Shown here: piece after piece, positions 5,903-25,695 of the stretch | Layout of the letters: every line of letters starts with the position of its first letter | Position numbering within the stretch: position 1 is the first letter of the stretch | Origin: an uncultured Pseudomonadota bacterium | Lineage (GTDB): Bacteria > Babelota > Babeliae > Babelales > RVW-14 | Length of the DNA stretch: 32,000 nt | Direction of reading: 5' to 3' | Assembly (NCBI GenBank): GCA_964534555.1 | Contig: CAZHRK010000005.1 | Span: 1-32,000, forward strand | The notes under the pieces: generated by a model | What the model was told of the DNA's origin: nothing | Database searches by the model: none | Seen by the model: only the letters and a program-made list of their open reading frames with translations | Position numbers and translations under genes: made by a program

Positions 5903-5918
5903 ATTGCAAGGAGCATTT

Positions 5919-6381: not shown

Positions 6382-6387
6382 TATTTT

Positions 6388-7240: not shown

Positions 7241-7320
7241 AAACCTGTTCCTGTTTAGGTATTGCCCCAAAGGTCCGCTCATGCAAACCCTTCGACGCGC
7301 TCAGGGCGAGCGGGGACAAA

Positions 7321-7590: not shown

Positions 7591-8018
7591 AAGAGGATCG
7601 CTCGATCAAACCCTTCGACAGGCTCAGGGCGAGCGGGGATATAAGACATCACTTATCTAATCAGCATTCACCTCAGGGCGAGCGGGGGTTGATACATCTG
7701 GGCGCTTATTAGGGCCGGCGCGGGGGTGGCATCAATCGGGGCAGTTGGGGCCGGGCGGACAGGAACAGTGGTCTGCCAGGGTCGTCTTAGGCAGGAACAG
7801 GCCTAATATAAAAATGTATTTCACTATATTTATAGCCTAAACCTGTTCCTGTTTTGCAATTTCCCCAAAGGTCCGCTCGATCAAACCATTCGACAAGCTC
7901 AGGGCGAGCGGTAGGGGTGATACATCTGGACCGCCAGGGTCGTCTTAGGCAGGAACGGGCCTAATTAAATAAAATATGAATTCCATATATCTTCAGCATC
8001 ACCAGGCAACGCAGAGTC

Positions 8019-8047
8019 TTGCAAAAAAACACATTTACTTTTAGGGT
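8019..8047 (+). promoter_or_regulatory. Sigma70-like promoter candidate of the 8173 gene
   Basis: TTGCAA 8019..8024, a 17-nt spacer, then TAGGGT 8042..8047. The surrounding GCAGAGTCTTGCAAAA is conserved upstream of the paralogue at 12305..12320. Confidence 0.45.
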
Positions 8048-8172
8048 AATTCTATTCATTTATTTTTGAGTGAGAGAGCTTTATGCAAAGTTTGTTTGCA
8101 GTCAAAAAGCCTTGTGGACGAGAAAATCGCTCCAGATCAAAAAAGAATAAGATCTTATTAAGGAGAGTGTGT

Positions 8173-11100: not shown

Positions 11101-11331
11101 GTCGGTAGAAATGATATCTACAACCCAGGCGGCCAGCTGCTTGAGTCTGTTCAGCTTGAGCCAACATCTGCGCAGTATGCAGAGGCAATAGATAAAAAAG
11201 GTGCACAACCAGTTGATTTCAAAAACGTATTTTACACCAATCCGCTTCCGATCAGCGGTGTGCCGGTGCAAGATAGTGCATCAGGTGCTGTGTATATTCC
11301 AGGAGAGTTTGGACTCTTGGTAAGAGAGTAA
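8173..11331 (+). CDS. Large secreted Ala/Gly-rich protein, paralogue 1 (function unknown; possibly a repeat/propeller-like surface protein)
   Basis: AGGAG lies 7 nt upstream of ATG 8173. Signal peptide MNKSIKKVQGATRVGAALIILSLCFVQNADA. The 1052-aa protein shares HWNNYLERLYLGL, GDSVYVSMAG, GIFKSTALFDEHGNVRSWTPW, GWLFVGGEKGIAVM and the C-terminal PGEFGLLVRE with the 12374 gene. Confidence 0.85.
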   Translation: MNKSIKKVQGATRVGAALIILSLCFVQNADAARVTAGLAQPATKTAFGGGKFFTGAGAVGANENSVARYQINAAGNLDQVGLAPDVGVKVNGGAVAGPLHNKAISALAATSDGSAVAAVDAAAPAKIHLITNTNDGKTVVNTPVEIKDAAAVAANALAVPALAVTSSEIHISGGAGAEVKKKLIFSVASPAASVHSKNAGIHVLSVEADSLQAKQNDNLTVNAANKPLKISEAVFDIANADTSLENPTNICFHWNNYLERLYLGLDNVKVANVNNSGALSLGMLSVDPTAGGDTGAINFVPVAVAAGLTRADDHLGIGFLQNAAPPVAVVAPKIYNIVSTRTSTNKDLIIFNGSGRAGNDSQTPVYALPLVSTDGPDKGKIGYLDGANPYQALQAGHELTNLGLSPSAFVGSNPLLLSSDSKAAISHLAAYGDSVYVSMAGDRVIGGAGGLPVHTEEAGIFKSTALFDEHGNVRSWTPWTRAVPPVHNNNGVLNAYKAYGFGVDEAQGALWFVTDDAAHAQKRVALSEWTDSAATAHADDPMKGLSPVLAGLGATSISTVAHFDESTIGFKRVGAGAAADKNYQFIALTALADNTNQKLVLAQTGARSAAEAGDANAFGPVQDFTPANRVVNLSDAKYYANGASGSVVAALGSIDAIELARSTVADKGWLFVGGEKGIAVMRKSDGGEKGKGFNSFVGLENLNPAAGEFPGDGGANEFKFAQIVSYLTNAGEVSVTDELKNVRKVVSDGTYIYALTPSKLIRIAMGIESFKEGKIQKVAGAAGGTVGHEYYQVLADLNDIAPKKADLVAGGFGAPINDISAASDEFFDLLLLDKTALGAADADAGPAGAAKKIALATTRGLFVNEADMRGEGVAAANGKQWKLVTDAFSTVLKMDFVSSVRGGRFAAGGVKDGNLYVTALDANKESVCVYRLDVQGGAAPKLVDNTAATGSSYLYKLGTIDEALRGDLSFDMPADLVGRNDIYNPGGQLLESVQLEPTSAQYAEAIDKKGAQPVDFKNVFYTNPLPISGVPVQDSASGAVYIPGEFGLLVRE

Positions 11332-11344
11332 GACGTAGCTTGGT

Positions 11345-11365
11345 GAGGGGGCGTTCTGCCCCCTC
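11345..11365 (+). terminator. GC hairpin after the 8173..11331 gene (weak terminator candidate)
   Basis: GAGGGGGC 11345..11352 / GCCCCCTC 11358..11365. No T tract follows. Confidence 0.3.
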
Positions 11366-12262
11366 AAGCTCCCCCGTAGGGTAGTCGCCAGAAATGAATT
11401 TATTTTATAATCATACGCAAAACCTGTTCCTGTTTTGCAATTGCCCCTGAAAATGAATTTTTATATTTTGATATGCGGGCCTGTTCCTGCCCGCGCCGAC
11501 CCTAGAGGCCCTGTCTTCTATTCCCGCGCCGGCCCCAACAACCGATTATTCAGTGTGATGTCTTCTATCACCGCACGCGGCTGAGCGCACCCACTACCTA
11601 TAAAAGCGTTTGTTTCTATCTCCGCTCGCCCTGAGCCTGTCGAAGGGTCTGATCGAGCGGACATTATAATGAATGTATATTTTGATATGCAAAACCTGTT
11701 CCTGTTTTGCAATTGCCCTTACCGCTCGCCGCTGAGCGCACCCACTGCCTATAAAAGCGTTTGTTTATATCCCGCTCGCCCTGAGCTTGTCGAAGGGTTT
11801 GATCGAGCGGACCTTTGGGGCAATTCCTAAACAGGAACAGGGCTTTTGGGGAAATTGCAAAACAGGAACAGGTTTTGCGTTATAAATATATGGAAATTAT
11901 ATTTTATTATATGCGGGCGCGGGAGTTGCCCGCCCGACCCTATTAGGCCCGTTCCTGCCTAAGACGACCCTGGCGGCCCCGATTGATGCCACCCCCGCTC
12001 GCCCTGAGCGTGCGTACAACTACATAAGGGATGTCTTCTATCCCCGCTCGCCCGTGAGCGTGCCTGCGGGTTTGATCGAGCGATCATTATAATGAATGTA
12101 TATTTGATATGCCAAACCTGTTCCGGTCTGGCGACTACCCTTACCGCTCGCCGCTGAGCGCACCCACTGCCTATGAAAGCTTTTGTTTCTATCTCCGCTC
12201 GCCCTGAGCTTGTCGAAGGGTCTGATCGAGCGGCCCTTGTGTTAATAAATCTATTACTCATA
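11366..12262. repeat. Intergenic mosaic-repeat block 5
   Basis: Reverse A modules at 11622..11660, 11772..11810, 12044..12083 (one extra base) and 12195..12233. D modules at ~11722..11778 and ~12144..12201. There are at least 7 H hairpins and an AT core at ~11880..11910. The end module CTTGTGTTAATAAATCTATTACTCA also occurs at ~6790..6815. Confidence 0.9.
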
Positions 12263-12311
12263 GCATATGCGCGCACCATCTTTTAATCGAAGCACCATGC
12301 AATGCAGAGTC

Positions 12312-12340
12312 TTGCAAAACCCCCCATTTCTTCTTATGGT
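12312..12340 (+). promoter_or_regulatory. Sigma70-like promoter candidate of the 12374 gene
   Basis: TTGCAA 12312..12317, a 17-nt spacer, then TATGGT 12335..12340. AAGGAG 12361..12366 precedes ATG 12374. The geometry matches 8019..8047. Confidence 0.5.
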
Positions 12341-12373
12341 AATGGTATTGTTTGTGTAAAAAGGAGATTGTGT

Positions 12374-15300
12374 ATGAACCAACATAAACACGTTCGTGTG
12401 GTGGCATCACCACAACGCAAAACACGCTTAGTTGCGCTCTTAGCATTAAGCTGCTGTTTTGTGCAGTCAGTGAGTGCGACGCTTGCAAGTGCCGCTCATA
12501 AAACGCCATTATCAAATGTTCGATTCGTTCCATCGCGTGAAACATCAGTCCTGTACGCAGGTGCCGCTGTAGCTCCTGCTGCAAATAAATCAGAAATGAT
12601 TGTGCGCGCGCAGCTTGGCACTGACGCAACCGGTGAGCCAGAAATTGAGCTGAATGAAATCGGTGCAAACATCGCTGGTGGACTTAAGGAAGTTACTCAC
12701 CTTGCGGTTTCACCAAACGGCACAGTGCTCAGCTTTGTAACGCCAACAGCTGCTGGTGATGAAGTTAAAAAAGTGCAGCAGCTGTACAGCCCTGCAGCGT
12801 CAGAAAAGCCAGCGGCAGAGATTTCAGCAGTGCTTAATGATGCTAATGGAAACGCTACAGAAGGTATTGTTGCGCTTGCGTCAAATGATACATATGCATT
12901 TGCAGCAGTGAGGGAGGCTGGTCAAGCATGGACTGCTGGTGATGAACGCGGTATTGCCGTTGTTAAGCATGGTGCAGCAGGTACAGCGCCAGATCAGAAG
13001 CAAGCTGGTGACCTTACCACAGCAGCAGCTGGCGCTCCTGATGATTCGCTCAAACTCTCTGTTAATTCCGCAGACAACCTTGTTGCATTTAAAGATCCTG
13101 CAGCTGCTGCAGTACTTGATTTTGATGCACAACTAACATCAAATAATGTTGCGATGCACTGGAACCCGTACAACGATCGTTTGTACGTTGGGCTTGGTGG
13201 CATTCGTCGTCCTGCTGGTCAAGAGGGTGGTGTGCTCGGCGTGACGGTTGGTCGTGTTGAGGCCGATGCGTTCAAATTAGCTGCTTTTGCACAAGCTAAT
13301 CCTGGCGTTATCCCAACTAAAGCTTTATTTTATGATGCTGCAGGGCAAAATAATGCGCTTGGTATTATCGGTTCATACCGTGATGCTGGATTTGGCGGTG
13401 GTACCGTAAGCGTTAATAAAATCGCATCACTCCACACAAGCACCGGAAAAGATTACCTCGTGGTTGCAAGCGAAGTTGCTGGTAGCGGTCCGCTCCAACC
13501 AACACAAAGTGGTGTGTATGCACTTCTGCTTAATAGTGACACTGCAGCTGCAGAAAAAACTGGATCAGTTGCTAAAGTTGCAAACTGGAAAACTCAACCA
13601 GCTGCCTATGGTGAGATGCCTCATGCAGCAGATGCAGCTGCGCGCATTCCACTCAGCCTTACGCAAGCGCAAATCGCTGATATTTTCTGCGAGGGCGACA
13701 GTGTGTATGTAGCTGCAAATGGCGCTAACCAAGCAGTTGCAGGGCTCTTTCAGTCACGCGCGCTGTTTGATGAAAACGGCTATATCTCAAGCTGGACATT
13801 GCCACAGCAAGTGCTTGCCGGACACGGTAAAGTTGTTGGTGCTGGTGTAGACGCCGCGACAGACACAATTATTGCAGTCGCGTCAGAAGGCCGTGATAGT
13901 GCAAAGAATGCAAACACTGTGTACGCAACACAATGGACAGCGGGTAAAGATAGTGCTCCTGGAGACTCTAACCTTCGCACAGTATTAGCTGAAAAATTCC
14001 CAGCAGAAGAGGGCGGCGTGCAGCAGCTGTTTATGTTTAGCGAAGCGACACCAGGATTTGCCGCTAATCGCTTAACGCTTGGTGTTGCGATTTCTGGCAG
14101 CAAGGTTGGACTTATTCAAGTTGCGCAGCGCGAAATCGGTGTTGGTGTAAACGCAGGCGTTGCACCAACGGTTGATTATGCTGTAGCAAAAGTATTTGTG
14201 TACGAAGATAACGAAGTTCTTAAGTCTATTGCGCCGCTTACTTCAGCATGCGTTGTTGACGGTACAAACGGCGGTTGGCTGTTTGTTGGTGGTGTGAACG
14301 GTGTTGCTGTGCTCAGCGGTAACGGCGGTGGTTTAGTTGCGAATACTAATGAGATTCCTGCTGGATCAGGCTGGAAGCTTTCGCTCGGTGCAAACGGCGG
14401 GCTTGCTGGCCTTGCTAACACTGCATCAGCTGCTCCAAATACAAAAGCTGGCTACCCTGGCCCACTCGATGCAACTGATGTTGCTGCAGCTGCAGCTGAT
14501 AACGCTGGCTACACCTGGAAGCAGCTTATTCCAGAAGCTGCTAATCTTTCTAACTTTGACAATGTACAAAAACTCATCGGCACAAACGGCCACAATGGTG
14601 ATGGTCAGCTCTTTATCTTGACTGATAAAGGTTTTTACCGCGTTGTGCCAACAGTTCCAACAATGGTCCTAAATACACCAAACCTTCATGAGGTTGATCT
14701 GCTCAGATTGCCTGCGTATGAAGTTGCGTATGGTCCTGCAAACCAAGTAACAGCTGCTGGATTTGCTGCTGGTGCTGCTGTTACCGCTCTTCAAGCACGC
14801 CTTGAAGACGCTGTACTGCTTGATGCGGTTGCGCTTGACTTCAAGCCAGGAACGGCGGCACCTGCAGCTGCTGCTCAGCAGACCTTTATCATATCATCAA
14901 CTAAAGGTATTGATCTGATTCAGATTACTGCACCACTACCTGCTGGAGCATTAACTGCCCTCCTGCCAGCTGAAAACTTTGAGACTGCTCCGCTTCTTGA
15001 TGGCAAGATTATTTTAAGCCTTGCGTACCAAAGCAGATCACGCAGCGGCGCAACACAAAAAGGTGAGCTGGTAGCCCTTGAAGCCGACTTTAGCCAAGAG
15101 CCATCAGTTGGTGTCTTGCACCGTCTCGCTGTTAATGCTGACGGTGGTTTTGCTGATATTCTTAAACTAGTTGCTGCTGCCCAGTATCCGCTTGCACAGG
15201 CGCGTGCTGCAGTGCTCCCGGTTGGTGCTGGGTATCTGCATACCCGTGGTAAGCACTTTGGTGATACAAACTATGCAGAAACACTTATGCCAAGCACACG

Positions 15301-15469
15301 TTTGAACCAAGCTCAAGATGGTAAGCTTGCTGACAGCGTTGTTGGCCAGTCGGTGGTAAGCTTGTTTGACCTTGACGCAGAAGCATCACTCGTTGGTAGA
15401 CCAGTGGTTGACCCAGCGACAGGAAACGTGATTGTTCCTGGTCAGTGGGGTGTTGTCGTTAAAGGTTAG
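12374..15469 (+). CDS. Large secreted Ala/Gly-rich protein, paralogue 2 (function unknown)
   Basis: Signal peptide MNQHKHVRVVASPQRKTRLVALLALSCCFVQSVSA. The 1031-aa protein carries HWNPYNDRLYVGL, GDSVYVAANG, GLFQSRALFDENGYISSWTLP, GWLFVGGVNGVAVL and the C-terminal PGQWGVVVKG, all collinear with the 8173 gene. Confidence 0.85.
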   Translation: MNQHKHVRVVASPQRKTRLVALLALSCCFVQSVSATLASAAHKTPLSNVRFVPSRETSVLYAGAAVAPAANKSEMIVRAQLGTDATGEPEIELNEIGANIAGGLKEVTHLAVSPNGTVLSFVTPTAAGDEVKKVQQLYSPAASEKPAAEISAVLNDANGNATEGIVALASNDTYAFAAVREAGQAWTAGDERGIAVVKHGAAGTAPDQKQAGDLTTAAAGAPDDSLKLSVNSADNLVAFKDPAAAAVLDFDAQLTSNNVAMHWNPYNDRLYVGLGGIRRPAGQEGGVLGVTVGRVEADAFKLAAFAQANPGVIPTKALFYDAAGQNNALGIIGSYRDAGFGGGTVSVNKIASLHTSTGKDYLVVASEVAGSGPLQPTQSGVYALLLNSDTAAAEKTGSVAKVANWKTQPAAYGEMPHAADAAARIPLSLTQAQIADIFCEGDSVYVAANGANQAVAGLFQSRALFDENGYISSWTLPQQVLAGHGKVVGAGVDAATDTIIAVASEGRDSAKNANTVYATQWTAGKDSAPGDSNLRTVLAEKFPAEEGGVQQLFMFSEATPGFAANRLTLGVAISGSKVGLIQVAQREIGVGVNAGVAPTVDYAVAKVFVYEDNEVLKSIAPLTSACVVDGTNGGWLFVGGVNGVAVLSGNGGGLVANTNEIPAGSGWKLSLGANGGLAGLANTASAAPNTKAGYPGPLDATDVAAAAADNAGYTWKQLIPEAANLSNFDNVQKLIGTNGHNGDGQLFILTDKGFYRVVPTVPTMVLNTPNLHEVDLLRLPAYEVAYGPANQVTAAGFAAGAAVTALQARLEDAVLLDAVALDFKPGTAAPAAAAQQTFIISSTKGIDLIQITAPLPAGALTALLPAENFETAPLLDGKIILSLAYQSRSRSGATQKGELVALEADFSQEPSVGVLHRLAVNADGGFADILKLVAAAQYPLAQARAAVLPVGAGYLHTRGKHFGDTNYAETLMPSTRLNQAQDGKLADSVVGQSVVSLFDLDAEASLVGRPVVDPATGNVIVPGQWGVVVKG

Positions 15470-15472
15470 TAA

Positions 15473-15790
15473 TTTTTGTAGGCCTGTTCCTGCCTACGAC
15501 GCCCCTGACCAAGGGGTTGGTGGTGTGGGAGCAGGGCCTTGTTAGGCAGGAACAGGCCCGCATATAATAAAATATGAATTCAAGAATATTTATAAGCAAA
15601 ACCTGTTCCTGTTTTGCGATTACCCTAGAGGCCCTGTCTTCGGTCTGGCGACTACCCTAAAAACCTCGTCCTGCCCGCGCCAGCCCCAGCGCCCCTGCTA
15701 CATACTTACCGCTCGCCCTGAGCTCGTCGAAGGGTTTGATCGAGCGGCTGACTGAACGGGGACTGTATCAGGATTAAGCGACTACCCTAA
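15473..15790. repeat. Intergenic mosaic-repeat block 6
   Basis: GTAGGCCTGTTCCTGCCTAC lies directly after the stop codon. Further hairpins are TTAGGCAGGAACAGGCCCGC (~15543) and GCAAAACCTGTTCCTGTTTTGC (~15597). Reverse A module at 15709..15747. Confidence 0.85.
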
Positions 15791-15819
15791 ACCGTGTATT
15801 TAATATGGAGTTAGTAATT

Positions 15820-17106
15820 ATGAACAAAAAATTATCATTCAAGCTTCTTGGCCTTGGTCTAACCATGGCCATAGCAACAGCAAACGCTTTTGTGCCAATA
15901 AACTTTTTTAAATCATATGATGTAAACCTTCGTCACCACGACGCACCAAAAGGCAATCCATTTCGCTTTGGCGTAAACCTTGAGTACGGCCAAGGTCACG
16001 ATGGACGCAACTGGGACAGCAAAAAAGCAAACATCCTGCAAACGTACGAAGCAACTCAAGCAGTTATTCCAATGCTCATCAACGGCAAAAACGCTGACAT
16101 CACAGCAGCATACAACCACTTGCTCGTTGGTGGCGCTGCGCTAGATGATGGTACGCGCGGACACGTTGCGCTCACAGGTAAATTAAGCGCGCTCGAGACT
16201 CAGCTGCACGCTCGCTACGAGCTCCCAATCAGCCAAATCCCTGGCAAGCTCTCTATCGGCCTTGCGCTCCCAGTGCGCCACGCAAACGTGAGTGATATTA
16301 CGTTTAAAGACAATACACAAACACTCGCACCTGCTGATGCGCCGATTCGTGATCGTTATACAACCAGCCTTGAAATGCTGAACACAAAAATTACTGAGCT
16401 TGGTGGCGCTGACCTTAAGCCATGGTCACGCACAGGACTTGGTGACCTTGTGTTTATGGTTGATTGGAATAACAACTACCCACAAGAAAAAGAAGGCCTT
16501 AAAAACGTTCAGCTGCACGCAAAAGTTGGTGTAAGCATGCCAACGGGCGTTGAGCGCGATATTAAACACGCATTCAGCATGCCGTTTGGTAATGATGGTG
16601 CATGGGGAATGCCATTTGGTCTTGGTCTTAACCTTGATTTTAATTATCATATTCGCCTTGGCGCAGAAGCACAATTTGATGTTGTGTTTGATGAAAGCAA
16701 AGAGCGCTACATGAAAACAGACACACGCCAAACAGCGTTCTTACTCCTGAACAAAGGCGAAGCAACGATGGATCATGGTCTGACCTGGCAGTTTAACCTT
16801 TTCTTACAGGGCTATCAGTTCTGGAAGGGGCTTTCACTCAAGTTTGGCTATGAGTACCTTAAGCATGATGATGATCGTCTGACACCAAAAGCAGATACTT
16901 TTAATGCATCAGTTGCAAATAGTGCTGCATGGCTTCATGAATATAATCTGCACAACTTGATTTTCCAAGGCAGCTGGGATGCTGCTGGTTGCTGCGAAGA
17001 TTGGGGCGTAAAACCACAGCTTGTTGTGTTTTATAAACTGCCTGTTGGTGGCAAAAATATCGCAGCGTTTCAGACCTTTGGTGGTCAGCTCGCGATCTGC
17101 TTCTAA
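15820..17106 (+). CDS. Outer-membrane beta-barrel protein, family 2
   Basis: GGAG lies 9 nt before ATG 15820. Signal peptide MNKKLSFKLLGLGLTMAIATANA. The body is rich in aromatic/Gly beta-strand patterns, and the C-terminus ...FGGQLAICF ends in Phe. Confidence 0.75.
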   Translation: MNKKLSFKLLGLGLTMAIATANAFVPINFFKSYDVNLRHHDAPKGNPFRFGVNLEYGQGHDGRNWDSKKANILQTYEATQAVIPMLINGKNADITAAYNHLLVGGAALDDGTRGHVALTGKLSALETQLHARYELPISQIPGKLSIGLALPVRHANVSDITFKDNTQTLAPADAPIRDRYTTSLEMLNTKITELGGADLKPWSRTGLGDLVFMVDWNNNYPQEKEGLKNVQLHAKVGVSMPTGVERDIKHAFSMPFGNDGAWGMPFGLGLNLDFNYHIRLGAEAQFDVVFDESKERYMKTDTRQTAFLLLNKGEATMDHGLTWQFNLFLQGYQFWKGLSLKFGYEYLKHDDDRLTPKADTFNASVANSAAWLHEYNLHNLIFQGSWDAAGCCEDWGVKPQLVVFYKLPVGGKNIAAFQTFGGQLAICF

Positions 17107-17133
17107 TCGCATACTCAATCACTTTTATACAAA

Positions 17134-17170
17134 GAGCCTGGACGGGGAACCGTTCGGGCTCTTTTTTATT
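17134..17170 (+). terminator. Rho-independent terminator of the 15820..17106 gene
   Basis: 12-bp stem GAGCCTGGACGG 17134..17145 / CCGTTCGGGCTC 17150..17161 (2 G-T pairs), loop GGAA, T6 at 17162..17167. Confidence 0.8.
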
Positions 17171-17420
17171 AGAATAATTTTAAGTAGTTATATTTTGATA
17201 AGCCAAACCTGTTCCGGTCTGGCGACTGCCCTAAGGGGTAATACCTAAACAGGAGACAGGGCTTTTGGGGCAATTGCAAAACAGGATACAGGTTTTGCTT
17301 ATCACTATGTTGAAATACATTTTTATAAGCGGGCCTGTTCCTGCCCGCCCGGCCCCAACTGCCCAGATTGATGCCCCTCACCGCTCGCCCTGAGCCTGTC
17401 GAAGGGTTTGATCGAGCGGA
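17166..17420. repeat. Intergenic mosaic-repeat block 7a
   Basis: TTATTAGAATAATTTTAAGTAGTTATATTTTGATAAGCCAAACCTGTTCCGGTCTGGCGACT is repeated at 6422..6485. H hairpins lie at ~17243, ~17275 and ~17330. Reverse A module at 17381..17419. Confidence 0.85.
17381..17419 (-). repeat. Module A (reverse orientation), 4 nt from the stop codon of the GIY-YIG gene
   Basis: CCGCTCGCCCTGAGCCTGTCGAAGGGTTTGATCGAGCGG, the inverted partner of 17738..17776. Confidence 0.95.
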
Positions 17421-17423
17421 CCT

Positions 17424-17711
17424 TTATATCTGATTGCTTAATTTGACAAGAGCGTCCCAATCGCCAGCGATAAGAGCTTCTTTTTTATTGCGGGACCATT
17501 TTTTTAAACGACGTTCAATTTTAAAAGCATCATCACGCGTTGCAAATGTTTGCATCCAAACGAGTTTAACAGGTAAGCGATTTGCAGTGAAACAGTGTGG
17601 CCAGTAAGCAGCATCGTGTTGTGCTAAGCGTGATCTAATATCATCGGTATGACCGATATAAAATGAATCATCAGCACATTTGAGAATGTATACAACAAAA
17701 TTTATCATCAA
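17424..17711 (-). CDS. Small GIY-YIG nuclease-domain protein (COG2827/URI-type)
   Basis: 95-aa ORF. FVVYILKCADDSFYIGHTDDIRSRLAQH contains the two GIY-YIG signature triplets (VYI ... YIG) and the conserved Arg. Its size and layout match stand-alone GIY-YIG proteins. Confidence 0.85.
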   Translation of the reverse strand: MMINFVVYILKCADDSFYIGHTDDIRSRLAQHDAAYWPHCFTANRLPVKLVWMQTFATRDDAFKIERRLKKWSRNKKEALIAGDWDALVKLSNQI

Positions 17712-17737
17712 AGTATTGAGTGAATTTTATGTATGGA

Positions 17738-17776
17738 CCGCTCGATCAGACCCTTCGACAAGCTCAGGGCGAGCGG
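17738..17776 (+). repeat. Module A (forward orientation), 26 nt upstream of the GIY-YIG start codon
   Basis: CCGCTCGATCAGACCCTTCGACAAGCTCAGGGCGAGCGG. It is the only forward-oriented A copy located to the right of position 8000. Confidence 0.95.
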
Positions 17777-18245
17777 GACTAAATATACTGTTTTTAGTTT
17801 CCATAAAAGTTATTATTTGAATCGTGCTGATTATAACAAGATACTATAGCTTTGATAATTTTCCAGCTGGGTAGATACATCATTTCTATTTTGCGAATAG
17901 CCTAACAAAGCGATTATTGAGTGTGATGATCTTGTCACCGCTCGCCCTGAGCTTGTCGAAGGGTTTGATCGAGCGGTCATTATAATGAATGTATATTTTT
18001 ATATGCGGGCCTGTTCCTGCCCGCGCCGGCCCTAACAACCGATTATTCAGTGTGATGTCTTCTATCCCCGCTTGCCCTGAGCGTGCCTGCGGGTCTGATC
18101 GAGCGGTCCTCTGGGGTAATACCTAAACAGGAACAGGTTTAGGGTATAAATATATGGAATTCATATTTTATTTAATTAGGCCTGTTCCTGCCTAAGACGA
18201 CCCTAGAGGCCACTATCCCTCCCTGCGGGTCTGATCGAGCGGTCA
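17777..18245. repeat. Intergenic mosaic-repeat block 7b (after a ~160-bp unique AT-rich stretch)
   Basis: Reverse A modules at 17938..17976 and 18068..18106 (degenerate), and a half A at ~18221..18242. H hairpins are GCGGGCCTGTTCCTGCCCGC (~18005), CCTAAACAGGAACAGGTTTAGG (~18120) and TAGGCCTGTTCCTGCCTAAG (~18178). AT core ~18145..18175. Confidence 0.85.
17830..17858 (-). promoter_or_regulatory. Sigma70-like promoter candidate reading toward module A and the GIY-YIG gene
   Basis: On the minus strand: TTATCA (17858..17853), a 17-nt spacer, then TATAAT (17835..17830). Confidence 0.4.
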
Positions 18246-18463
18246 TCAAGGTCAATCGCTATCCAGCAAGATTTTTTAGAGCAGGTGCAGGCCAAAACAT
18301 CTTTAGCATAAGAGTATTGAAATAGAGCGTTGTATTTGTGCCGGCGCAGCGCTTTATTGCAACAAACGCATAGCGTAATCTAAAAGATAGTTGTACAATT
18401 TCACTACATTCATTCTCTATCCAGATGTATTGATTATTACAGCCTACAAAAGGAGCTTTTTTG

Positions 18464-20161
18464 ATGATTCTACTGAGCATAATACAGCGCGTGCTCTTTT
18501 GTTTTTTTATGCTTGTTGTTGCACCGTGGCAGGTCGTGTCTGCAGGTGCTGTAGCCGGATCACCACAGTCGTTTGAAGCGACACGCTACAGTCGTAAAGT
18601 ACTTGTAGATGAGCTTCGGCAGAAGCTGGTGACAGCGATTTATTCAAAAAATGATTCAGACATTAATGCAGTGCTTAATACCGTGCAGGATAAGTATCTT
18701 GACGGCGCTCTTTCTGAAATCGATAAGCTATCGCTCATTAATGATCCGTTAGGAGAGCACTCTCCATCAGCGTTGATTATGATCTTGCGCAATAAGTTGC
18801 CAATAACAGCAGGATTGTTTGATGGTGAGGTTGATGAATACATCAAAACACCGTTAGCAACTGTTATTGGCATGGGTGTAGACCTGTGGAATTGTCAGGG
18901 CCGCACGGCGTTTCAGGTTGCGTTAGATATGGGTAATATTTCTGGCGCATATTGTGTTTTGGTTGTTATGAGCCTGCAAGACCCAGAGCGCGTACGCACA
19001 TACACTGATGCTCAGGGGAGAAACTTTTTGCACTATGTTGCATCGATTAATCAGACGCTGCCAGAAAACCTTCCAGCGCGCTATAAAATACTGCAAAAAG
19101 CATTTCTAAGTTTTGTTTTTCTCCTTGTTACAACCGTAGGCATTGATCCAAACGCAGCTGACTCAGCAGGCAAGACGCCTTTTTACTACGCTCTTGCTAA
19201 GCGTGTTGTGGCTCGAGTACTGCTTGAAAATTGTGATATCGCAGACGCTTTTTGTCCTGACTTTGGCATGACGCTGTACGAGCGCTATGTGTATCTTAAT
19301 AAAGATACGCCGCATGCGCATGATGACATGGCTTTTGCGGCTCAGTCTTTTTTGGCGAGTGCGCTTAATCAAAAAAATATCAAGAGCCTGGCGCCGTTTT
19401 TTTCTGGCGCATCGCATCACTTTAAAATGAATGATGCACAAACATGTTTGTTTGATGAGCTGTGTAAAAAGTTTGCAGAAGCATGGCAAGCAGCTGATTC
19501 AGACGTTGTAGCATTAATCCTTGGCCTTGATAACCTTACCGTGCGTAAGCTCCTTGAGTTTCTTATTGCCAAGGGTGTTTTGAAACATCATGTGCTGCAT
19601 GATGCGCTCTTGTGGGCAGATGAAAAAACGATTGAGCTCCTGCTTGTTCACCTCAAGCAGTATGCGCCTGATTCGAATATTCCTGATCAGCTAAATTTTT
19701 CATATAAGATGTACACGCTTCCGGTTGCGTTTGCACTCAGAAGCAACGAGCCAAAGCTCCTTGATCTGCTCGCGCGACATGTTCCTCCAAAATTTAATAC
19801 GGTACTTGCTATGTCACTCAAGCTGTATCTAGCAACTGCAGACTTTAATGAAAAAACGCTGAGGCAGATTGATCAGCTTATTACGTACTTCAGGCCGACG
19901 CTTGAGTATACAGATGAATCTGGCAAGACGATTCTTGATTATTTGTATGAAAAAAATCTGCACAACTTTGCGCACAAAGCGCTTGCAAGTAGGGTGCTTG
20001 ATGCTGCAGACATTCGTTATGATGCAGACAGTGCAACAACGATATCTGATTTGTCACCACGATTATTAAACCCTCTTGAGCAGGCGAGTGTGTTTGTGTT
20101 GAGTCAAGATGTTGGAGTCAAGCCTGCACCGCAAGCCCCACGACCAGTGATAATTGCATAA
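18464..20161 (+). CDS. Sec-signal ankyrin-repeat protein (family member 1)
   Basis: AAAGGAG lies 8 nt before ATG 18464. The hydrophobic N-terminus MILLSIIQRVLFCFFMLVVAPWQVVSA is signal-like. ANK-like units include QGRNFLHYVASIN, AGKTPFYYALAKRVVARVLLENCDI and SGKTILDYLYEKN. The N-terminal half is collinear with the two genes at 22898..28071. Confidence 0.7.
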   Translation: MILLSIIQRVLFCFFMLVVAPWQVVSAGAVAGSPQSFEATRYSRKVLVDELRQKLVTAIYSKNDSDINAVLNTVQDKYLDGALSEIDKLSLINDPLGEHSPSALIMILRNKLPITAGLFDGEVDEYIKTPLATVIGMGVDLWNCQGRTAFQVALDMGNISGAYCVLVVMSLQDPERVRTYTDAQGRNFLHYVASINQTLPENLPARYKILQKAFLSFVFLLVTTVGIDPNAADSAGKTPFYYALAKRVVARVLLENCDIADAFCPDFGMTLYERYVYLNKDTPHAHDDMAFAAQSFLASALNQKNIKSLAPFFSGASHHFKMNDAQTCLFDELCKKFAEAWQAADSDVVALILGLDNLTVRKLLEFLIAKGVLKHHVLHDALLWADEKTIELLLVHLKQYAPDSNIPDQLNFSYKMYTLPVAFALRSNEPKLLDLLARHVPPKFNTVLAMSLKLYLATADFNEKTLRQIDQLITYFRPTLEYTDESGKTILDYLYEKNLHNFAHKALASRVLDAADIRYDADSATTISDLSPRLLNPLEQASVFVLSQDVGVKPAPQAPRPVIIA

Positions 20162-20164
20162 CGG

Positions 20165-20965
20165 CTACCGATGGTTGCACATAAAGTGTGCGTGCTGACT
20201 AGATAAGTGGTGTGTTTTATCACCGCGCGACCTGAGCGTGCCCACTGTTTATAAAAGCGTTTTTTTATATCCCCGCTCGCCCTGACCTTTCGACAAGCTC
20301 AAGACTAAAGGCGGTCGAAGGGTCTGATCGAGCGGACCTTTGGGGCAATACCTAAACAGGAGACAGGTTTTTAGGGTAGTTGCCAGACCGGAACAGGTCC
20401 TCTAGGGCAATTGCAAAACAGGAACAGGTTTTGCTTATAAATATATTGAAATACATTTTTATATTAGGCCTGTTCCTGCCTAAGACGACCCTAAGCGCCC
20501 AGATGTATCAACCCCCGCTCGCCCTGAGCATGCCTGCGGGTCTGATCGAGCGGTCATCTTTCTTACATTAAATTTTATGTAATGATCTAATTTTAATTAT
20601 TAAAAATAATGATTAATTAATTGTGCGGCGTCGGCCGCAGACGACCAGGATGGTGTTTGGTCACCACCCTGGACCCAGACCACCAGCGCTGGCATCGCTG
20701 GACCAGCCACCGATCACCCTCGCATATATGCTCCAGGTGATCGCACCGGCGAAGTTACACTAACGCACGGAGGGCACCTCCGTGAACCTCCGCATAACAC
20801 GCTGCGATTCAGCTGTAGCTAAATAATAATTATTTTTTAGATAACTACCCCTACCGCTCGCCCTGAGCATGCCTGCGGGTCTGATCGAGCGGACCTTTGG
20901 GGCAATACCTAAACAGGAACAGGTTTAGGGTATAAATATAGTGAATTCATATTTTATATTAGGCG
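20165..20965. repeat. Intergenic mosaic-repeat block 8 (encloses S copy 3)
   Basis: Reverse A modules at 20273..20335 (63-bp long variant), 20515..20553 and 20854..20892. The H/AT composite at 20336..20495 is homologous to 28333..28495. Confidence 0.9.
20560..20848 (-). repeat. S element copy 3 (minus strand)
   Basis: Its reverse complement aligns along the full length with 323..600 and 7321..7590. It is flanked on both sides by A modules in the same relative orientation as for copies 1 and 2. Confidence 0.8.
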
Positions 20966-20983
20966 CAAGACTCCTCTAGGAAT

Positions 20984-21394
20984 TCAAATCGCTCCTAGTT
21001 TTGTTTTACGTGCAGATTTTTTTAATGTTTCTGCAAGTTCCGCTTTTGAAACTATTCCCTCTGCAACATTTGTTACGAGTTGGAAAGCACTTTTATTTGA
21101 AGCTTTAAATACGTAATTATTATTTTCAAGAAAAACAAGGGCAACAGTAAATCCTGTGCGCTTGTTGCCATCAATAAAGGGATGATTTTTAATAATATGA
21201 AACATGTACGCTGCTGCTTGATCAAAAATAGTCTTATGCAGGAGCTGTCCAAACATTCGAGCTTCTGCTTGATGAAGAGCAGAGCGAAGCAACCCTTCAT
21301 CTCTTATGCCATGAATACCACCAAAAGCTGCAATCATGTGCTCATGAATCATGAGCACACTTTCATAATCGAGAAAAATCGGAGTTTGCTTCAT
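20984..21394 (-). CDS. doc: Fic/Doc family toxin (death-on-curing type)
   Basis: 136-aa ORF. The motif HPFIDGNKRTG matches the Doc signature HxFx(D/N)(A/G)NKR. The N-terminus GIRDEGLLRSAL is typical of the family. It overlaps the upstream antitoxin ORF by 4 nt. Confidence 0.9.
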   Translation of the reverse strand: MKQTPIFLDYESVLMIHEHMIAAFGGIHGIRDEGLLRSALHQAEARMFGQLLHKTIFDQAAAYMFHIIKNHPFIDGNKRTGFTVALVFLENNNYVFKASNKSAFQLVTNVAEGIVSKAELAETLKKSARKTKLGAI

Positions 21395-21618
21395 TGAGCG
21401 AGTTTTTTAAGCGTTGAGGCATATCGTTTTGACACAGATGCCAAGCTTTTTTTTACAGCAGCTTTGCTGATTGTTTGTTTTTCTTGAACAACCTCAGCAG
21501 AAAAAATTCCTTTTGATAATGAAATTTTAAAATCTGAAGAGGGGTCAACATTCATTTTCTTTAGGTCTGCTTGCTCAAGAACAAAGCAAAAACTTTTTCC
21601 AACTTTTACAAGTTTCAT
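21391..21618 (-). CDS. AbrB/SpoVT-like antitoxin of the Doc toxin
   Basis: 75-aa ORF with an ATGA overlap with doc. The N-terminus MKLVKVGKSFCFVLEQADLKKMNV resembles swapped-hairpin (AbrB/MazE) DNA-binding domains. The assignment rests mainly on position and size. Confidence 0.65.
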   Translation of the reverse strand: MKLVKVGKSFCFVLEQADLKKMNVDPSSDFKISLSKGIFSAEVVQEKQTISKAAVKKSLASVSKRYASTLKKLAQ

Positions 21619-21740
21619 ACGGAAGTTCTTTCATGAAAAAATGAACGCTTAAACATTGTATAATCGTAACATGTTTTTTTTCGCAAAATACATTTTTTGC
21701 AATTTCCCCAAAAGCCCGGTTCCTGTTTAGGAATTTCCCC

Positions 21741-21794
21741 AGCTGAATATAAATTTTTTGATGCTATTTCAAGCCAGTGTTTATGATTTTGCAT
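21741..21794 (-). pseudogene. Remnant (first ~18 codons) of a HEPN gene, truncated by a repeat unit
   Basis: The minus-strand ATG at 21794 overlaps the MNT stop by 14 nt, the same geometry as 1224 versus 1237. The remnant MQNHKHWLEIASKNLYSA aligns with MLDHELWISLAYEDFLTA. From ~21740 the sequence becomes the repeat GGGGAAATTCCTAAACAGGAACCGGGCTTTTGGGGAAATTGCAAAA. Confidence 0.6.
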
Positions 21795-22095
21795 AAATCA
21801 CCTTGCCGCTCTTAATTATCTTGGCAATAAGTGATGATGGCTCTTCTGCTCTAGTCTGGAGCTCATCTGTTGTATACACCAAAAGATCTACAGGTTCACC
21901 AAAGCCTATCAATGAACGATAGCCTTTTTTTGATCTAACAAGAATACGTTCTGTCGAGGCATCAAGTTCAACTAAAATATCATAATCACTTGAGTGTGAA
22001 ATATCTCCCCATACGCGTGAACCAAAAAGATAAATACGCTCGGGATTATATGCCTCAGTCAATCGATCAATAAGATCACGTAGTTTAGCATCCAT
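21781..22095 (-). CDS. Nucleotidyltransferase-domain protein (MNT type), paralogue of 923..1237, now without an intact HEPN partner
   Basis: 104-aa ORF. MDAKLRDLIDRLTEAYNPERIYLFGSRVWG...SSDYDILVEL is collinear with and highly similar to the 923 gene. Confidence 0.85.
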   Translation of the reverse strand: MDAKLRDLIDRLTEAYNPERIYLFGSRVWGDISHSSDYDILVELDASTERILVRSKKGYRSLIGFGEPVDLLVYTTDELQTRAEEPSSLIAKIIKSGKVIYAKS

Positions 22096-22164
22096 ACATG
22101 CTCCAACAGCTTTTGAGATTTACTATCACAACCAGTGTAGCCTATCAGAAGAGATCTTTTAATA

Positions 22165-22800
22165 GATGGGTTGTCGCCAGAGCGGCCCGCTCGCCGTGAG
22201 CGTGCCTGCGGGCCTGATCGAGCGGACCGCCAGGGTCGTCTTAGGCAGGAAACAGTGCGCCGCCAGGGCCGGGCGGGCAACTCCCGCGCCCGCATATAAA
22301 AATGTATTTCAACATAGTGATAAACAAAACCTGTTCCTGTTTTGCAATTGCCCCTGAAAATGAATTTTTATATTTTGATAAGCCAAACCTGTTCCGGTCT
22401 GGCGACTACCCCTACCACTCACCCTGAGCGCACTCGCTAGCTATAAATGCATTTGTTTCTATCACCGCTCGCCCTGAGCCTGCCTGCGGGTCTGATCGAG
22501 CGGACCTTTGGGGCAATACCTAAACAGGAACAGGTTTAGGGTATAAATATAGTGAAATATATTATTAATAAATTATATGCGGGCCTGTTCCTGCCCGCGC
22601 CGGCCCTAAGCGCCCAGATGTATCAACCCCCGCTCGCCCTGAGCGTGCCTATGGGTCTGATCGAGCGGACCGCTAGGGTCGTCTTAGGCAGGAACGGGCC
22701 TAATTAAATAAAATATGAATTCAATATAGTTATAAGCAAAACCTGTTCCTGTTTTGCGATTACCCTGGCAGCCCACCGCCCCTGTCTTCCTGCCCGCGCA
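22165..22800. repeat. Intergenic mosaic-repeat block 9
   Basis: Reverse A modules at 22187..22225, 22465..22503 and 22630..22668. There are at least 7 H hairpins, with AT cores at ~22290..22325, ~22545..22575 and ~22700..22735. Confidence 0.9.
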
Positions 22801-22829
22801 GGTCCTGGCTGTCCTGCTTGATGCTGCGT

Positions 22830-22860
22830 AAAAAAAGCGGGGGCATGATCGCCCCCGCTT
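22830..22860 (-). terminator. Rho-independent terminator of the 22898..25627 gene
   Basis: On the minus strand: AGCGGGGGC-GATCAT-GCCCCCGCT (9-bp stem, plus-strand 22836..22859) followed by T7. Confidence 0.8.
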
Positions 22861-22897
22861 CTCAGGTACTGTGTAGCTTGTAAAATTTCTTGCTCAG

Positions 22898-25627
22898 TTA
22901 ATCAATAAGTTCACTTACAAATTGCTCAATCTTTTCGTATTCAGCAGCGTCGCAAAAATCAGGTACAGACCCATCTACTCTGGTTGGAATACAGTTAAGC
23001 GGTGTTTTGCCACGTTTGTCAGTGACATACAGCCCTGTTGTATTGATACCATGTAATAATCGAACTGATGATCCAAGGCCGCGTCTGCATGCATAATGAA
23101 GCGGTGTTCTGCAGTCTCTATTTTTCAATACGACAAGCTCTGGCTGTGCAATAAGTTGGTCTTTTACCAGGCCGACCATTCCATGCGCAGTGAGCAAACT
23201 AATAAGTGGAACGCCTTCATGATCAGCTACTGTCAGTCTTGGTTTGTATTCAAGCAAGAAATTAACAACATCCAAGCTAGGTGTTTTTTTATTTTCTCTC
23301 AAAATGTAGCAGAGCGTGCGCGCTGCCCACTTTGATTGACGATCTCCTCCTGCTTCAAGCAGCGCAGCAGCTGCAGGCCTGTTGCCAAATTTAATCATAG
23401 CATTGAGCGCGCGTGCGTACGTTACATCATCATGCTCATACAGCACGCTTGTTTGTGTTGTTGTTTCAAGCATGCGCACAAGGTGCCTAACAAGCTCCGG
23501 AGAAACCCACGATGCGCACTGGACAATAAGCGGCACATGATCCATTAGAATTGTCATGGAATCAAAAGCTTCTTGAGTTGCTTCCCAGCTGTATCGTGTA
23601 AGCTGAGCTATCAATCCATCTGAAGATTTTGTTTGCCAGAAATAGCTTAGGCGCATTACTAAGTTCCCGTCATCACATAGAGCTTTAAGCCCTTTCCAGA
23701 AAATAACTGAATGTGCATGCGCTTCTTCATCAGATAGTGAGGCATCACGGCGGGAGAGATGTTTGCGCGCGGCAGCAGGAAGGCCCTCAAGCCTTTCAGC
23801 AAATATGTCTAAGCATGAGGCTTTGATTTCAATGCTGTCATGTGCGAGCATGAGTGTGATCGGCGTATGACCTTCGCTATCAAGTACATGAGTAACTGCA
23901 GGGCAGGTTTTTAGGAGGTGCTGAATTGATTTTCTAAAACCTTTTTTTGCGCAGAGGTGTGCGAGTGTTGAACGCTCTGGTCCGACTTGATGACAGTGCG
24001 TTATCTGGCATGAAGTTATGATCTCATACATCGTCTCATCTGTTACTCGTGAGTGCGGTTTGTGTAAGTACTCTTGCATCAGGCGAGACGGATCTGTGCC
24101 GAGTCTCTCTTTCATCGCTTCCATGTACCTATTAGAGCGTATGATATATTCAGCGTAAGTTTCTGGTTCTTGCAGCCCTTGGCCACCAAGCGAATAACGC
24201 TTCAAAGAAGTCAGTCTGGATAAAAAATTATGTGCTTGTATAAATGTTACTTTTGCAACTGTTTCGTCTTTCTCATCCCAGTCTGCAATATCAATAAGCA
24301 GCGGCGTTGTGCTTGGACTATCCTGAAAGGCATACCCAATAAAGCGGTGAAGCTTTTCTATGGCAAAAACTTTATTGAGATAGCGTAGGTTTTTTTCAGC
24401 CATGGCTTTATAAACAAGTTCATACACAACATCCTGAACAAGCTGTATTGTCCAGCCATCAAGGAAAAGCGCATCGATTAAGGCTTTGTTGCCTTCAAGT
24501 ATCCCCATTAAAACACATTTGTGCATATTTTTTTTAAGCGTTTTGATCAGCAGCTCTTCTGGGAGTGTTGGGGTTGGGTGGAGGCAAATAATATTTTTAA
24601 TTGCTTGGCCTGCAGACATATTATTGTATTTAGTAGGCGCTTGTGGTGACCCAACAAAAGCAGCTCCTGAGGCTGATGGTTGGTATATTGGCCCATAAAC
24701 GATGCGTGTGAGCGTTGATGATGATGCTTCGATTGCTTTCATAATAAAATCATCACGCAGCACGTTGATCCGAGACGGCTCTGCTGGCTCAGCTGACAGT
24801 GATGCAGCACCAGCACCGTCTGTTCCAGCTCCACCTGCCGCAGCTACCGAGCGTGGTACGCTATGCGTTGCTGGATGTGTTAACAAATAGGTTTGAAGAG
24901 GGTGCACGTCGCGAGTTGCGTCTACTTTGTCGCACCAATCAATAACTGCTCCGTGTTCAAGTAAGATTCGTGCTAAAAGTGCGTTGTTGAAACAGAGTTG
25001 CAGCGCAGTGTCGTCAGCCTTGTTTCTTGCATGCACATCTGCACCACATTCCTCAATAAGTGTGCTTACAAGGACATTGTAGGCAGCATCCATGTTATCA
25101 CGCTTATCGTGTTGATAGATCGGGATAACAAGATTAACTGCGGCTAATGTGTGCAGCAGGGTGTTTTGTTTATCATCGCGCAGTGTGCCGAGTGTTGCAA
25201 AAAACTCTGGATACACACCTTGTATTGTGCGCATGACGATAATTGCAGCCGGAAAATTTCCGTAAAAAATCGTCAGCTTAAGAAGCTCAAGCATAGTATT
25301 TGGGTCATACACATCTTCTTTTTTACTAAATGCTTCACCCAAAGAAGATGCTGCATAACGACCAGCATTAATAAGTCCGCCGGCTACTCCGTAATCCCAA
25401 AATGATTCTTTAAAAAGTAGATTATCGCTGACGCGTGTCCCTCTTTCGTAGCTGTAAGGGAGCATTTCTCTGGCTACATCGACCATGTTTTTAGGTCTAT
25501 GTGCTCCTTCTGTGCTGCTTGTTGCTGAGGCGGCACCAGCTCCAGCAGATGCTGTTCCTAGCATTCCGCCTGCGCTGACTACTGATGTCCAGAGCATTAC
25601 ACCTACGATTGCGAGAAAAAAAGACAT
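22898..25627 (-). CDS. Sec-signal ankyrin-repeat protein (family member 2)
   Basis: 909-aa ORF. Signal-like N-terminus MSFFLAIVGVMLWTSVVSA. Clear ANK units include RTPLHYACRRGLGSSVRLL, STLAHLCAKKGFRKSIQHLL...EGHTPITL and NTLLHTLAAVN. It is collinear with 25696..28071. Confidence 0.85.
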   Translation of the reverse strand: MSFFLAIVGVMLWTSVVSAGGMLGTASAGAGAASATSSTEGAHRPKNMVDVAREMLPYSYERGTRVSDNLLFKESFWDYGVAGGLINAGRYAASSLGEAFSKKEDVYDPNTMLELLKLTIFYGNFPAAIIVMRTIQGVYPEFFATLGTLRDDKQNTLLHTLAAVNLVIPIYQHDKRDNMDAAYNVLVSTLIEECGADVHARNKADDTALQLCFNNALLARILLEHGAVIDWCDKVDATRDVHPLQTYLLTHPATHSVPRSVAAAGGAGTDGAGAASLSAEPAEPSRINVLRDDFIMKAIEASSSTLTRIVYGPIYQPSASGAAFVGSPQAPTKYNNMSAGQAIKNIICLHPTPTLPEELLIKTLKKNMHKCVLMGILEGNKALIDALFLDGWTIQLVQDVVYELVYKAMAEKNLRYLNKVFAIEKLHRFIGYAFQDSPSTTPLLIDIADWDEKDETVAKVTFIQAHNFLSRLTSLKRYSLGGQGLQEPETYAEYIIRSNRYMEAMKERLGTDPSRLMQEYLHKPHSRVTDETMYEIITSCQITHCHQVGPERSTLAHLCAKKGFRKSIQHLLKTCPAVTHVLDSEGHTPITLMLAHDSIEIKASCLDIFAERLEGLPAAARKHLSRRDASLSDEEAHAHSVIFWKGLKALCDDGNLVMRLSYFWQTKSSDGLIAQLTRYSWEATQEAFDSMTILMDHVPLIVQCASWVSPELVRHLVRMLETTTQTSVLYEHDDVTYARALNAMIKFGNRPAAAALLEAGGDRQSKWAARTLCYILRENKKTPSLDVVNFLLEYKPRLTVADHEGVPLISLLTAHGMVGLVKDQLIAQPELVVLKNRDCRTPLHYACRRGLGSSVRLLHGINTTGLYVTDKRGKTPLNCIPTRVDGSVPDFCDAAEYEKIEQFVSELID

Positions 25628-25695
25628 GCGCGATATTCCTTGTTTAGCCTGCGTTTTTTAGAAAGTCTGTACGAGTGGGACGGACAGGATACACG

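Follow-up and report, generated by a model that had tools for sequence, protein, structure and literature searches.

Small single-domain GIY-YIG proteins of about 94 amino acids (CDD cd10448) have recently been described as the Ssn family (Chenal et al., Nat Commun 2025, PMC11893778). Their genes lie between inverted hairpin repeats of 20-50 nt, termed NTS in Neisseria and, more generally, SRM, of which hundreds of copies exist per genome, and an SRM is found nearby in 71% of the Ssn homologues and on both sides in 42% (PMC11893778). SsnA from Neisseria meningitidis binds its repeat solely as single-stranded DNA and on one strand, cuts a few nucleotides 5' of the repeat and is inactive on double-stranded DNA or RNA; its cleavage activity is abolished by the exchanges Y6A, Y17A and E64A (PMC11893778). 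Meningococcal SsnA reduces transformation by NTS-containing DNA, and the family is enriched in symbionts (PMC11893778). The authors themselves remarked on the NTS-ssnA-NTS layout, which is similar to that of an insertion sequence (IS), and on the analogy to REP repeats and RAYT proteins (PMC11893778). Here, we compare with this family a stretch of 32,000 nt (positions 1 to 32,000 of contig CAZHRK010000005.1, referred to as the window), in which an open reading frame (ORF) for a small GIY-YIG protein lies between inverted copies of an abundant 39-nt repeat, module A. The window stems from a genome that is laden with repeats and rich in ankyrin genes and has uncultured Dependentiae (TM6/Babeliales) as nearest relatives.

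Judged from its sequence and by analogy to the published family, the ORF probably encodes a small stand-alone endonuclease of the Ssn type that acts on single-stranded DNA, with module A as its cognate hairpin repeat. The initial annotation of this DNA had already proposed the nuclease as partner of the A-type repeats, by analogy to RAYT and REP. This interpretation is right in substance and gains support from the recurrence of the pair across phyla, described below, and from the published in vitro work on the related family. However, it is not new in kind, and the view that this nuclease class was not known for such a role is outdated, since the Ssn paper of March 2025 describes the architecture and draws the same analogy (PMC11893778).

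The nuclease gene and the hairpins beside it

The gene is located on the minus strand at 17424..17711 and codes for 95 amino acids if counted from the TTG at 17711, or for 94 amino acids from the in-frame ATG at 17708. The shorter form (17424..17708) is identical to the public protein P0001. Pfam assigns residues 5-77 to the GIY-YIG domain (PF01541, E = 2e-16) and detects nothing else above threshold in the window protein, a match to T5orf172 being sub-threshold. All 23 invariant columns of a 37-sequence family alignment are kept, including Y7, Y17, R27, H31 and E65. Y7, Y17 and E65 are thus the counterparts of Y6, Y17 and E64 in SsnA, the mutation of which abolishes cleavage. ORF, Pfam match, P0001 and alignment agree in describing a gene that is Ssn-like, intact and single-domain. 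No second or decayed GIY-YIG copy is present across the whole window, including the interval between the other convergent A pair (6523/7275). Homologues share at most 63% identity with the window protein and come mostly from Sphingomonadales and metagenomes, with one Babeliales protein at 55%; the closest ones (60-63%) belong to other phyla, those from Babeliales showing 49-55% identity.

Module A has the hairpin-sense sequence CCGCTCGCCCTGAGCTTGTCGAAGGGTCTGATCGAGCGG and is present on both sides of the gene. The upstream copy (17738..17776, minus strand) matches the 39-mer without any mismatch and lies 26 nt from the TTG or 29 nt from the ATG, and the downstream copy (17381..17419, plus strand, two mismatches) is situated 4 nt past the stop codon. 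Together they constitute a 39-nt inverted repeat with 95% complementarity, and the coordinates, strands and gaps given in the initial annotation all check out. No other module of the window comes as close to a gene as these two, the next distances being 49-91 nt. The hairpin-sense strand of the upstream copy (CCGCTCGCCC-TGAGCTTGTCGAA-GGGTCTGATCGAGCGG) is the coding strand of the gene, that of the inverted downstream copy is the opposite strand, and the hairpin-sense 5' ends of both modules point outwards from the gene. In total, there are 25 full modules of this A/A' family in the 32 kb (279..30883, both strands), all of them intergenic, and 14 of these are A modules with the loop TGAGCYTGTCGAA. 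The dispersed modules are presumed to be the genomic targets of the nuclease.

With so many copies around, the arrangement might be a coincidence, in which an ordinary housekeeping nuclease of the COG2827/UPF0213 type is flanked by A modules simply because these fill most intergenic regions (11 of 16 in the window). The resemblance of the window protein to UPF0213 proteins would agree with this, and the caution about chance flanking expressed in the initial annotation was fair: after random re-placement of the modules, 8% of the trials had some gene with a module within 30 nt on either side, and in 4% these two were inverted. As far as the window alone is concerned, the flanking is only modestly improbable by chance and suggestive, not compelling, so that the comparative data decide.

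These data come from a search in which an alignment of 37 homologues (A1) was run against one genome per species and which gave at least 587 confirmed hits; 80 loci were kept. They include Alpha-, Beta- and Gammaproteobacteria (with Legionella and Coxiellaceae), Myxococcales, Geobacteraceae, Syntrophobacter, Sulfuricurvum, Dehalococcoidia/Chloroflexi, Fibrobacterota, Bacteroidota and Babeliales. The following counts refer to 81 loci with proteins of 45-60% identity, and to 82 loci in the case of inverted repeats. The sequence CCGYTC-nnn-TGAGCYTGTCGAA-n'n'n' is found just 5' of the start codon in nearly all loci and its reverse complement just past the stop codon in many. Within 150 nt, a sense hairpin occurs upstream in 54 of the 81 loci and an antisense hairpin downstream in 63, with a chance expectation of 0.012 per site for either one (background rate 0.157 per kb), and 47 loci possess a hairpin on both sides. 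The opposite polarity is seen in 18 loci upstream and in 23 downstream. In 57 of 82 loci, the gene is enclosed by a significant inverted repeat. Among 40 loci, there are 20 in which the flanking copies have an identical 4-nt stem arm, where 3.1 would be expected and 5000 shuffles gave a maximum of 10. The two A copies of the window match the upstream and downstream hairpins of the related loci in position and polarity.

Most of these genomes are not rich in the repeat. The majority of the 8-kb loci contain 0-7 motif matches, concentrated at the gene, and in the Babeliales genome with the homologue of 55% identity (L001) the inverted A-like sequences that bracket the gene are the only ones in 10 kb. 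Since the hairpin recurs at the gene across phyla and far above background, the pairing of this protein clade with the hairpin in the given polarity is real and old. A coincidental flanking of a housekeeping gene is extremely improbable in view of these results, as the same hairpin flanks the same clade in repeat-poor genomes, with conserved polarity and with matched stems of the flanking copies.

A peculiar variant of the arrangement exists in a locus from Coxiellaceae (L026, 3835-4390), with 85-nt inverted arms that are 96% complementary and include an A-like hairpin. An NTS-like half-sequence abuts the outer end of each arm. The third codon of the GIY-YIG frame is an in-frame TAG, and the gene may therefore be a pseudogene there.

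Hairpin structure and relation to the Ssn family

An alignment of 100 distinct gene-proximal copies (A2) reveals a covarying stem of 3-5 bp, which closes the almost invariant loop. Of the cells for the five pairs that close the 13-nt loop, 84% contain standard pairs compared to 54% after shuffling, and none of 500 shuffles reached 84%. The covariation score of the stem is 0.73 versus 0.21 for shuffled sequences, slid partners score 0.20 at most, and the three innermost pairs exchange freely among C-G, G-C and T-A. Between CTGAG(G/T)A and TCGAAGG, the loop can accommodate additional stems or a second, nested copy of the same hairpin. Module A of the window has an additional 7-bp outer stem (CCGCTCG/CGAGCGG), and for the copy at 17738 a single-stranded DNA fold of -8.8 kcal/mol is predicted.

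The G.T pairs of the stem are one-sided, with 19 G.T and no T.G at one position, which identifies one particular strand as the folding strand. Since this is the coding strand upstream of the gene and the other strand downstream, it is consistent with a role at the level of DNA rather than of mRNA. This is of relevance for another possible explanation, according to which the upstream copy is a regulatory or stabilising stem-loop in the 5' untranslated region (5' UTR), the downstream copy a terminator-like stem-loop and the dispersed copies are functionally unrelated. The covariation of the stem and the location of the downstream copy 4 nt past the stop codon would suit such an RNA-level role. 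A sigma-70-like promoter match, TTATCA-17-TATAAT with a TG extension (17830..17858, minus strand), does exist as the initial annotation had stated; it is a match to the consensus only (10 of 12 positions) and would, if used, put the upstream A module into the 5' UTR. However, because of the change of strand, the one-sided G.T pairs would turn into A.C mismatches in the mRNA of the downstream copy, which is neither followed by a T-run nor listed by the terminator scan. Moreover, Rfam searches of the window (E-value mode) and of 16 related loci assigned the hairpin to no family, RNA is not bound by SsnA according to the published work (PMC11893778), and 25 intergenic copies would be left unexplained. 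Altogether, a function of the repeats in RNA is very unlikely. A hammerhead ribozyme, the core of which is superficially resembled by CTGAnGA...GAA, was also considered and rejected owing to the misfit of the core and the lack of an Rfam match.

If the nuclease works like the published Ssn proteins, module A would fold whenever the DNA becomes single-stranded, for instance during replication, during repair or in incoming DNA, with a contribution of the outer stem CCGCTCG/CGAGCGG. The protein would then bind the folded module in a strand- and sequence-specific manner and might nick the DNA a few nucleotides 5' of it, and double-stranded DNA and RNA would be no substrates. In this case, the approximately 25 copies per 32 kb could serve as cut sites in single-stranded DNA and might modulate recombination or DNA uptake.

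In the original publication, a protein is assigned to the Ssn family by a BLASTP hit to SsnA CAX49033.1 (E < 1e-10, at least 75% coverage) or by cd10448 as top CDD hit, and the repeats are found by the search sequence HGTCWYN(0-2)YYVSBRHN(0-5)WNVSBRGN(0-2)RNCYNB (PMC11893778). The locus in the window agrees with the family in the size and single domain of the protein, in the catalytic residues, in the inverted 39-nt flanking repeats and in their many copies, but the flanking repeats do not match the SRM search sequence. For the comparison of the proteins, we used NTS-flanked GIY-YIG homologues from IMG/VR viral contigs that had been scanned for NTS, as stand-ins for SsnA itself. A textbook unit is present in L133, where the GIY-YIG gene is located between NTS(+) at 7785-7809 and NTS(-) at 8141-8165. 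The proteins of the NTS type share the motif pattern YxGVTxxL...REKxxKKWxRxWK...NPxWxDL, and the window protein aligns with the stand-ins with E-values of 2e-13 to 2e-5 (36-50 bits, best alignment over residues 5-83).

Several observations weigh against an assignment of the pair to the Ssn type. The window protein is only 27-37% identical to the retrieved NTS-flanked homologues, and the UPF0213 proteins BH0048 and EF2693 reach higher scores (59 and 54 bits) than these; the similarity to UPF0213 is also evident from the profile matches to 1zg2 (BH0048, E = 3.3e-22) and 1ywl (EF2693, E = 2.6e-19). The published SRM pattern has no match in the window, and neither has the NTS pattern. Among the 81 related loci, SRM lies within 500 nt of the gene in a single one, at -167 in the Coxiellaceae locus L026, a match at -986 in L012 being outside this limit. 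Furthermore, 11 of the 25 modules carry the different A' loop TGAGCGTGCCTGC, and the window-only p-value of the inverted flanking is approximately 0.04. Vice versa, no hairpin with the TCGAA loop was detected near the genes of the NTS type, the frequency of the pattern being 0.046 per kb over 1 Mb of these loci.

Some sphingomonad loci with a gene of the clade to which the window protein belongs, named the GHTDD type here after one of its motifs, contain in addition canonical SRM/NTS-like inverted doublets, about 80 nt apart and several kb away from this gene (L024 706-787, L027 2394-2478, L029 625-705, L050 1267-1353). As the doublets are remote from a gene that bears its own hairpin, two hairpin systems coexist in sphingomonads.

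Mobility, vertical inheritance and the dispersed repeats

In four loci from unrelated organisms, whole hairpin-gene-hairpin units are flanked by direct duplications of host sequence (26-85 nt). The duplication in the Babeliales genome L001 comprises 85 nt (4685-4769/5482-5566) and corresponds to the 3' end of the upstream gene, the one in L036 comprises 37 nt (2424-2460/3209-3245), and in L054 about 26-50 nt of the 5' end of mutS2 are duplicated (about 981-1006 and 1479-1504). In L066, the 31-nt duplicate (3870-3900/4488-4518) is exactly the overlap of the hsdM stop and the hsdS start, and both genes therefore stay intact. These duplications are a hint at mobility of the four related units and, to our knowledge, the first one at the sequence level that units of this kind are inserted en bloc. 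The unit in the window has no visible target duplication. In three related Dependentiae loci, the syntenic regions (about 21 kb each) contain neither the GIY-YIG gene nor the hairpin, which is compatible with a co-occurrence of both. Since these relatives lack both, the pair of gene and repeat is apparently an addition to this Dependentiae genome. The gene order in the syntenic relatives comprises an AAA_14 ATPase (in L205 only), two large orphan genes and an outer-membrane protein.

The situation is different in Sphingomonadales, where the GIY-YIG gene with its hairpin is always located directly 3' of nrdR in 13 loci from at least six named genera (L007, L010, L014, L017, L019, L024, L025, L029, L030, L039, L047, L055, L065). 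The identity of nrdR was confirmed for L024 by its Zn-ribbon and ATP-cone domains. This conserved synteny indicates a long vertical inheritance, as is the case for domesticated RAYTs. There is one gene copy in each related locus and one in the window. Overall, the pattern resembles that of RAYTs, with occasional transfer followed by retention.

The duplications lead to a more far-reaching possibility that extends the favoured reading of a nuclease with its cognate hairpin, namely that the hairpin-gene-hairpin unit is an autonomous IS-like element, mobilised by the nuclease, with the A arrays as its MITE- or REPIN-like progeny. A single small gene bracketed by inverted repeats would be in line with this, as would the target duplications in L001, L036, L066 and L054, the absence of the gene from the syntenic site in relatives, the higher identity to homologues from other phyla (60-63% versus 49-55% for Babeliales) and the hairpins nested within hairpin loops (6727-6790, 20273-20335 and in sphingomonads). 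On the other hand, the window copy has no visible target duplication, the duplications of the related units vary between 26 and 85 nt, unlike those of a transposase with fixed stagger, the gene occurs as a single copy per locus and in the window, and the 13 nrdR loci speak for long vertical inheritance. In addition, the inverted hairpins leave one cleavable site per strand, so that a simple single-strand excision is not obvious, and GIY-YIG enzymes have no recognised strand transfer; we know of no such activity for them. An autonomous IS-like element is thus conceivable but rather unlikely.

Conceivably, the enzyme might also help to spread the repeats to new sites. It is a tentative and somewhat doubtful proposal that the genes of the GHTDD type and the TGAGCYTGTCGAA-loop hairpins constitute a distinct family of mobile units apart from NTS/SsnA, with the nuclease as mobilising enzyme. 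With a similarly low probability, these units might insert as a block with duplications of 26-85 nt, seed gene-free arrays and have expanded into modular composites in this genome. If true, GIY-YIG proteins would represent a further enzyme class behind repeat and IS-like mobility in bacteria.

Regarding these composites, the initial annotation had placed the nuclease gene in the position of the core of a normal, gene-free composite. This does not hold, as the A-type modules that bound the gene-free composites are direct and not inverted (for example 11622/11772/12195, all on the plus strand, and 20273-20335/20515, both on the plus strand), and the gene is therefore no simple replacement of the standard core. 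The junction itself is as described and reads CGAGCGGACCTTTATATCTGA at the gene, compared to CGAGCGGACCTTTGGGG-hairpin at 11769-11840 and in other places. The intergenic region of the upstream copy contains a further A module (17938..17976, plus strand), which belongs to a neighbouring composite with A' at 18068-18106.

The modules of the window show a pronounced strand bias. The hairpin-sense strand is the minus strand for 9 of the 10 modules at 279-7911 and the plus strand for 14 of the 15 at 11622-30883. On the right-hand side, only the upstream module of the GIY-YIG gene deviates; as had been noted initially, it is the single one among the 15 full A/A' modules beyond 8 kb that has this orientation. 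The switch takes place across the gene at 8083-11331, and the GC skew is positive throughout. A replication-strand effect was rejected as the source of the bias, because the GC skew stays unswitched where the module orientation flips.

Nested modules exist at 6727-6790 and 20273-20335 (and partially at 3-47), where a small inverted hairpin (CCTTTCGACAAGCTCAAGACTAAAGG) splits A immediately behind CCCTGA; in sphingomonad copies, a nested hairpin of the same sense is located between CTGAGTA and GTATCGAAGG. It would seem from this that the loops of existing copies serve as insertion sites for new ones. An exact scan of metagenomes for the A-module pattern gave hits on no more than three short contigs, which lack a GIY-YIG gene, and is uninformative on co-occurrence. 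These contigs (L202-L204; JGI contigs Ga0172375/Ga0172371) contain exact 39-nt A modules and have nothing else in common with the window, so that there is at least one further organism or genomic context with this module. Literature searches with peptides encoded by the repeat (e.g. VRPELVEG) gave no match.

There is also a second hairpin family in the window, H, with at least 17 copies (examples are 196-239, 3520-3563, 11403-11446, 17188-17231 and 22368-22411). Its loop CCTGTTCC(T/G)G is conserved and the stems vary between copies (GCAAAA/TTTTGC, CCTAAA/TTTAGG, GCCAGAC/GTTTGGC). No candidate for a protein partner of the H hairpins is encoded in the window. A strong terminator-like stem-loop (17131-17164, 15 pairs followed by a T-run) is located directly 3' of the gene for the outer-membrane protein and is separate from the repeat modules. 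The remaining genes include accessory genes typical of an intracellular lineage, i.e. an AAA_14/DUF4143 ATPase, Fic/DOC, nucleotidyltransferase, HTH and ankyrin-repeat proteins as well as large orphan ORFs (2169-3527, 20984-21394(-), 21781-22095(-), 31264-31740, 18461-20161, 22898-28071(-)). The order of AAA_14 ATPase, two large orphans and outer-membrane protein is kept in the relative L205.

Comparison with known systems

With REP/BIME and RAYT, the system in the window shares the layout only, that is, a single-copy enzyme gene between inverted copies of a short palindromic, intergenic and often clustered repeat. A long vertical inheritance in some lineages is common to both, here in the nrdR neighbourhood across Sphingomonadales. 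In contrast, the enzyme in the window is a GIY-YIG protein and RAYT (TnpA-REP) is an HUH Y1 transposase, and there is no evidence of strand transfer for the window system. TnpA of the IS200/IS605 type recognises subterminal hairpins in single-stranded DNA with strand specificity, as would, by analogy, the pair in the window, and there might be a link to the strand bias of the window copies. However, this enzyme has another fold, and IS200/IS605 elements lack target duplications and have asymmetric ends, whereas the ends here are inverted repeats and the related units show long and variable duplications.

GIY-YIG homing endonucleases (I-TevI, Seg) and Penelope-like elements also combine a GIY-YIG domain with a possibly selfish unit, and the target duplications of variable length recall the Penelope-like elements. 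The window protein of 94 amino acids differs from them, as it has neither a DNA-binding domain nor a reverse transcriptase and no intron is involved; a second domain as in I-TevI is absent and the context is a bacterial chromosome. The UPF0213/YhbQ proteins comprise the closest solved structures by sequence (PDB 1zg2 for BH0048 and 1ywl for EF2693) and are of the same size with a single domain, but the C-terminal KGWSRxKKEALIxGDW block of the window clade is only partly shared. We know of no association of UPF0213 proteins with repeats.

To the literature on the Ssn family, our results add a hairpin class of its own that is widespread and covaries strongly, a separate protein subfamily, a host from the Dependentiae in which the repeat has undergone a massive modular expansion, and sequence hints of block insertion. 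An extremely abundant, so far anonymous repeat system of an uncultured intracellular bacterium is now tied to a concrete candidate enzyme, and the conserved loop together with the covarying stem offers a ready substrate design for this candidate site-specific nuclease for single-stranded DNA. The published search pattern misses this apparent second pairing, and the present numbers given for Ssn genes, be it with or without cognate repeats, are therefore probably too low.

The likeness to the Ssn family covers the single-domain GIY-YIG protein of about 94 amino acids with Tyr, Tyr and Glu at matching positions, the bracketing of the gene by inverted hairpin repeats with the sense copy upstream (a layout also seen in L133) and the dispersal of the same repeat in many intergenic copies. 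The published family is enriched in symbionts, and the lineage of the window belongs to the intracellular-type Dependentiae. The two differ in the hairpin, which is CCGYTC-stem-TGAGCYTGTCGAA-stem here and CGTCATTCCCGCGMAVGCGGGAATCYRG in the case of NTS, as well as in the protein, with GHTDD...KGWSRxKKEALIxGDW here versus GVTxxL...KKWxRxWK...NPxWxDL. From the comparison with the NTS-flanked stand-ins, we conclude that the gene and module A are best regarded as a putative parallel nuclease/hairpin pair of the Ssn kind. This second pairing appears to run alongside the published NTS/SRM type and widens the Ssn concept.

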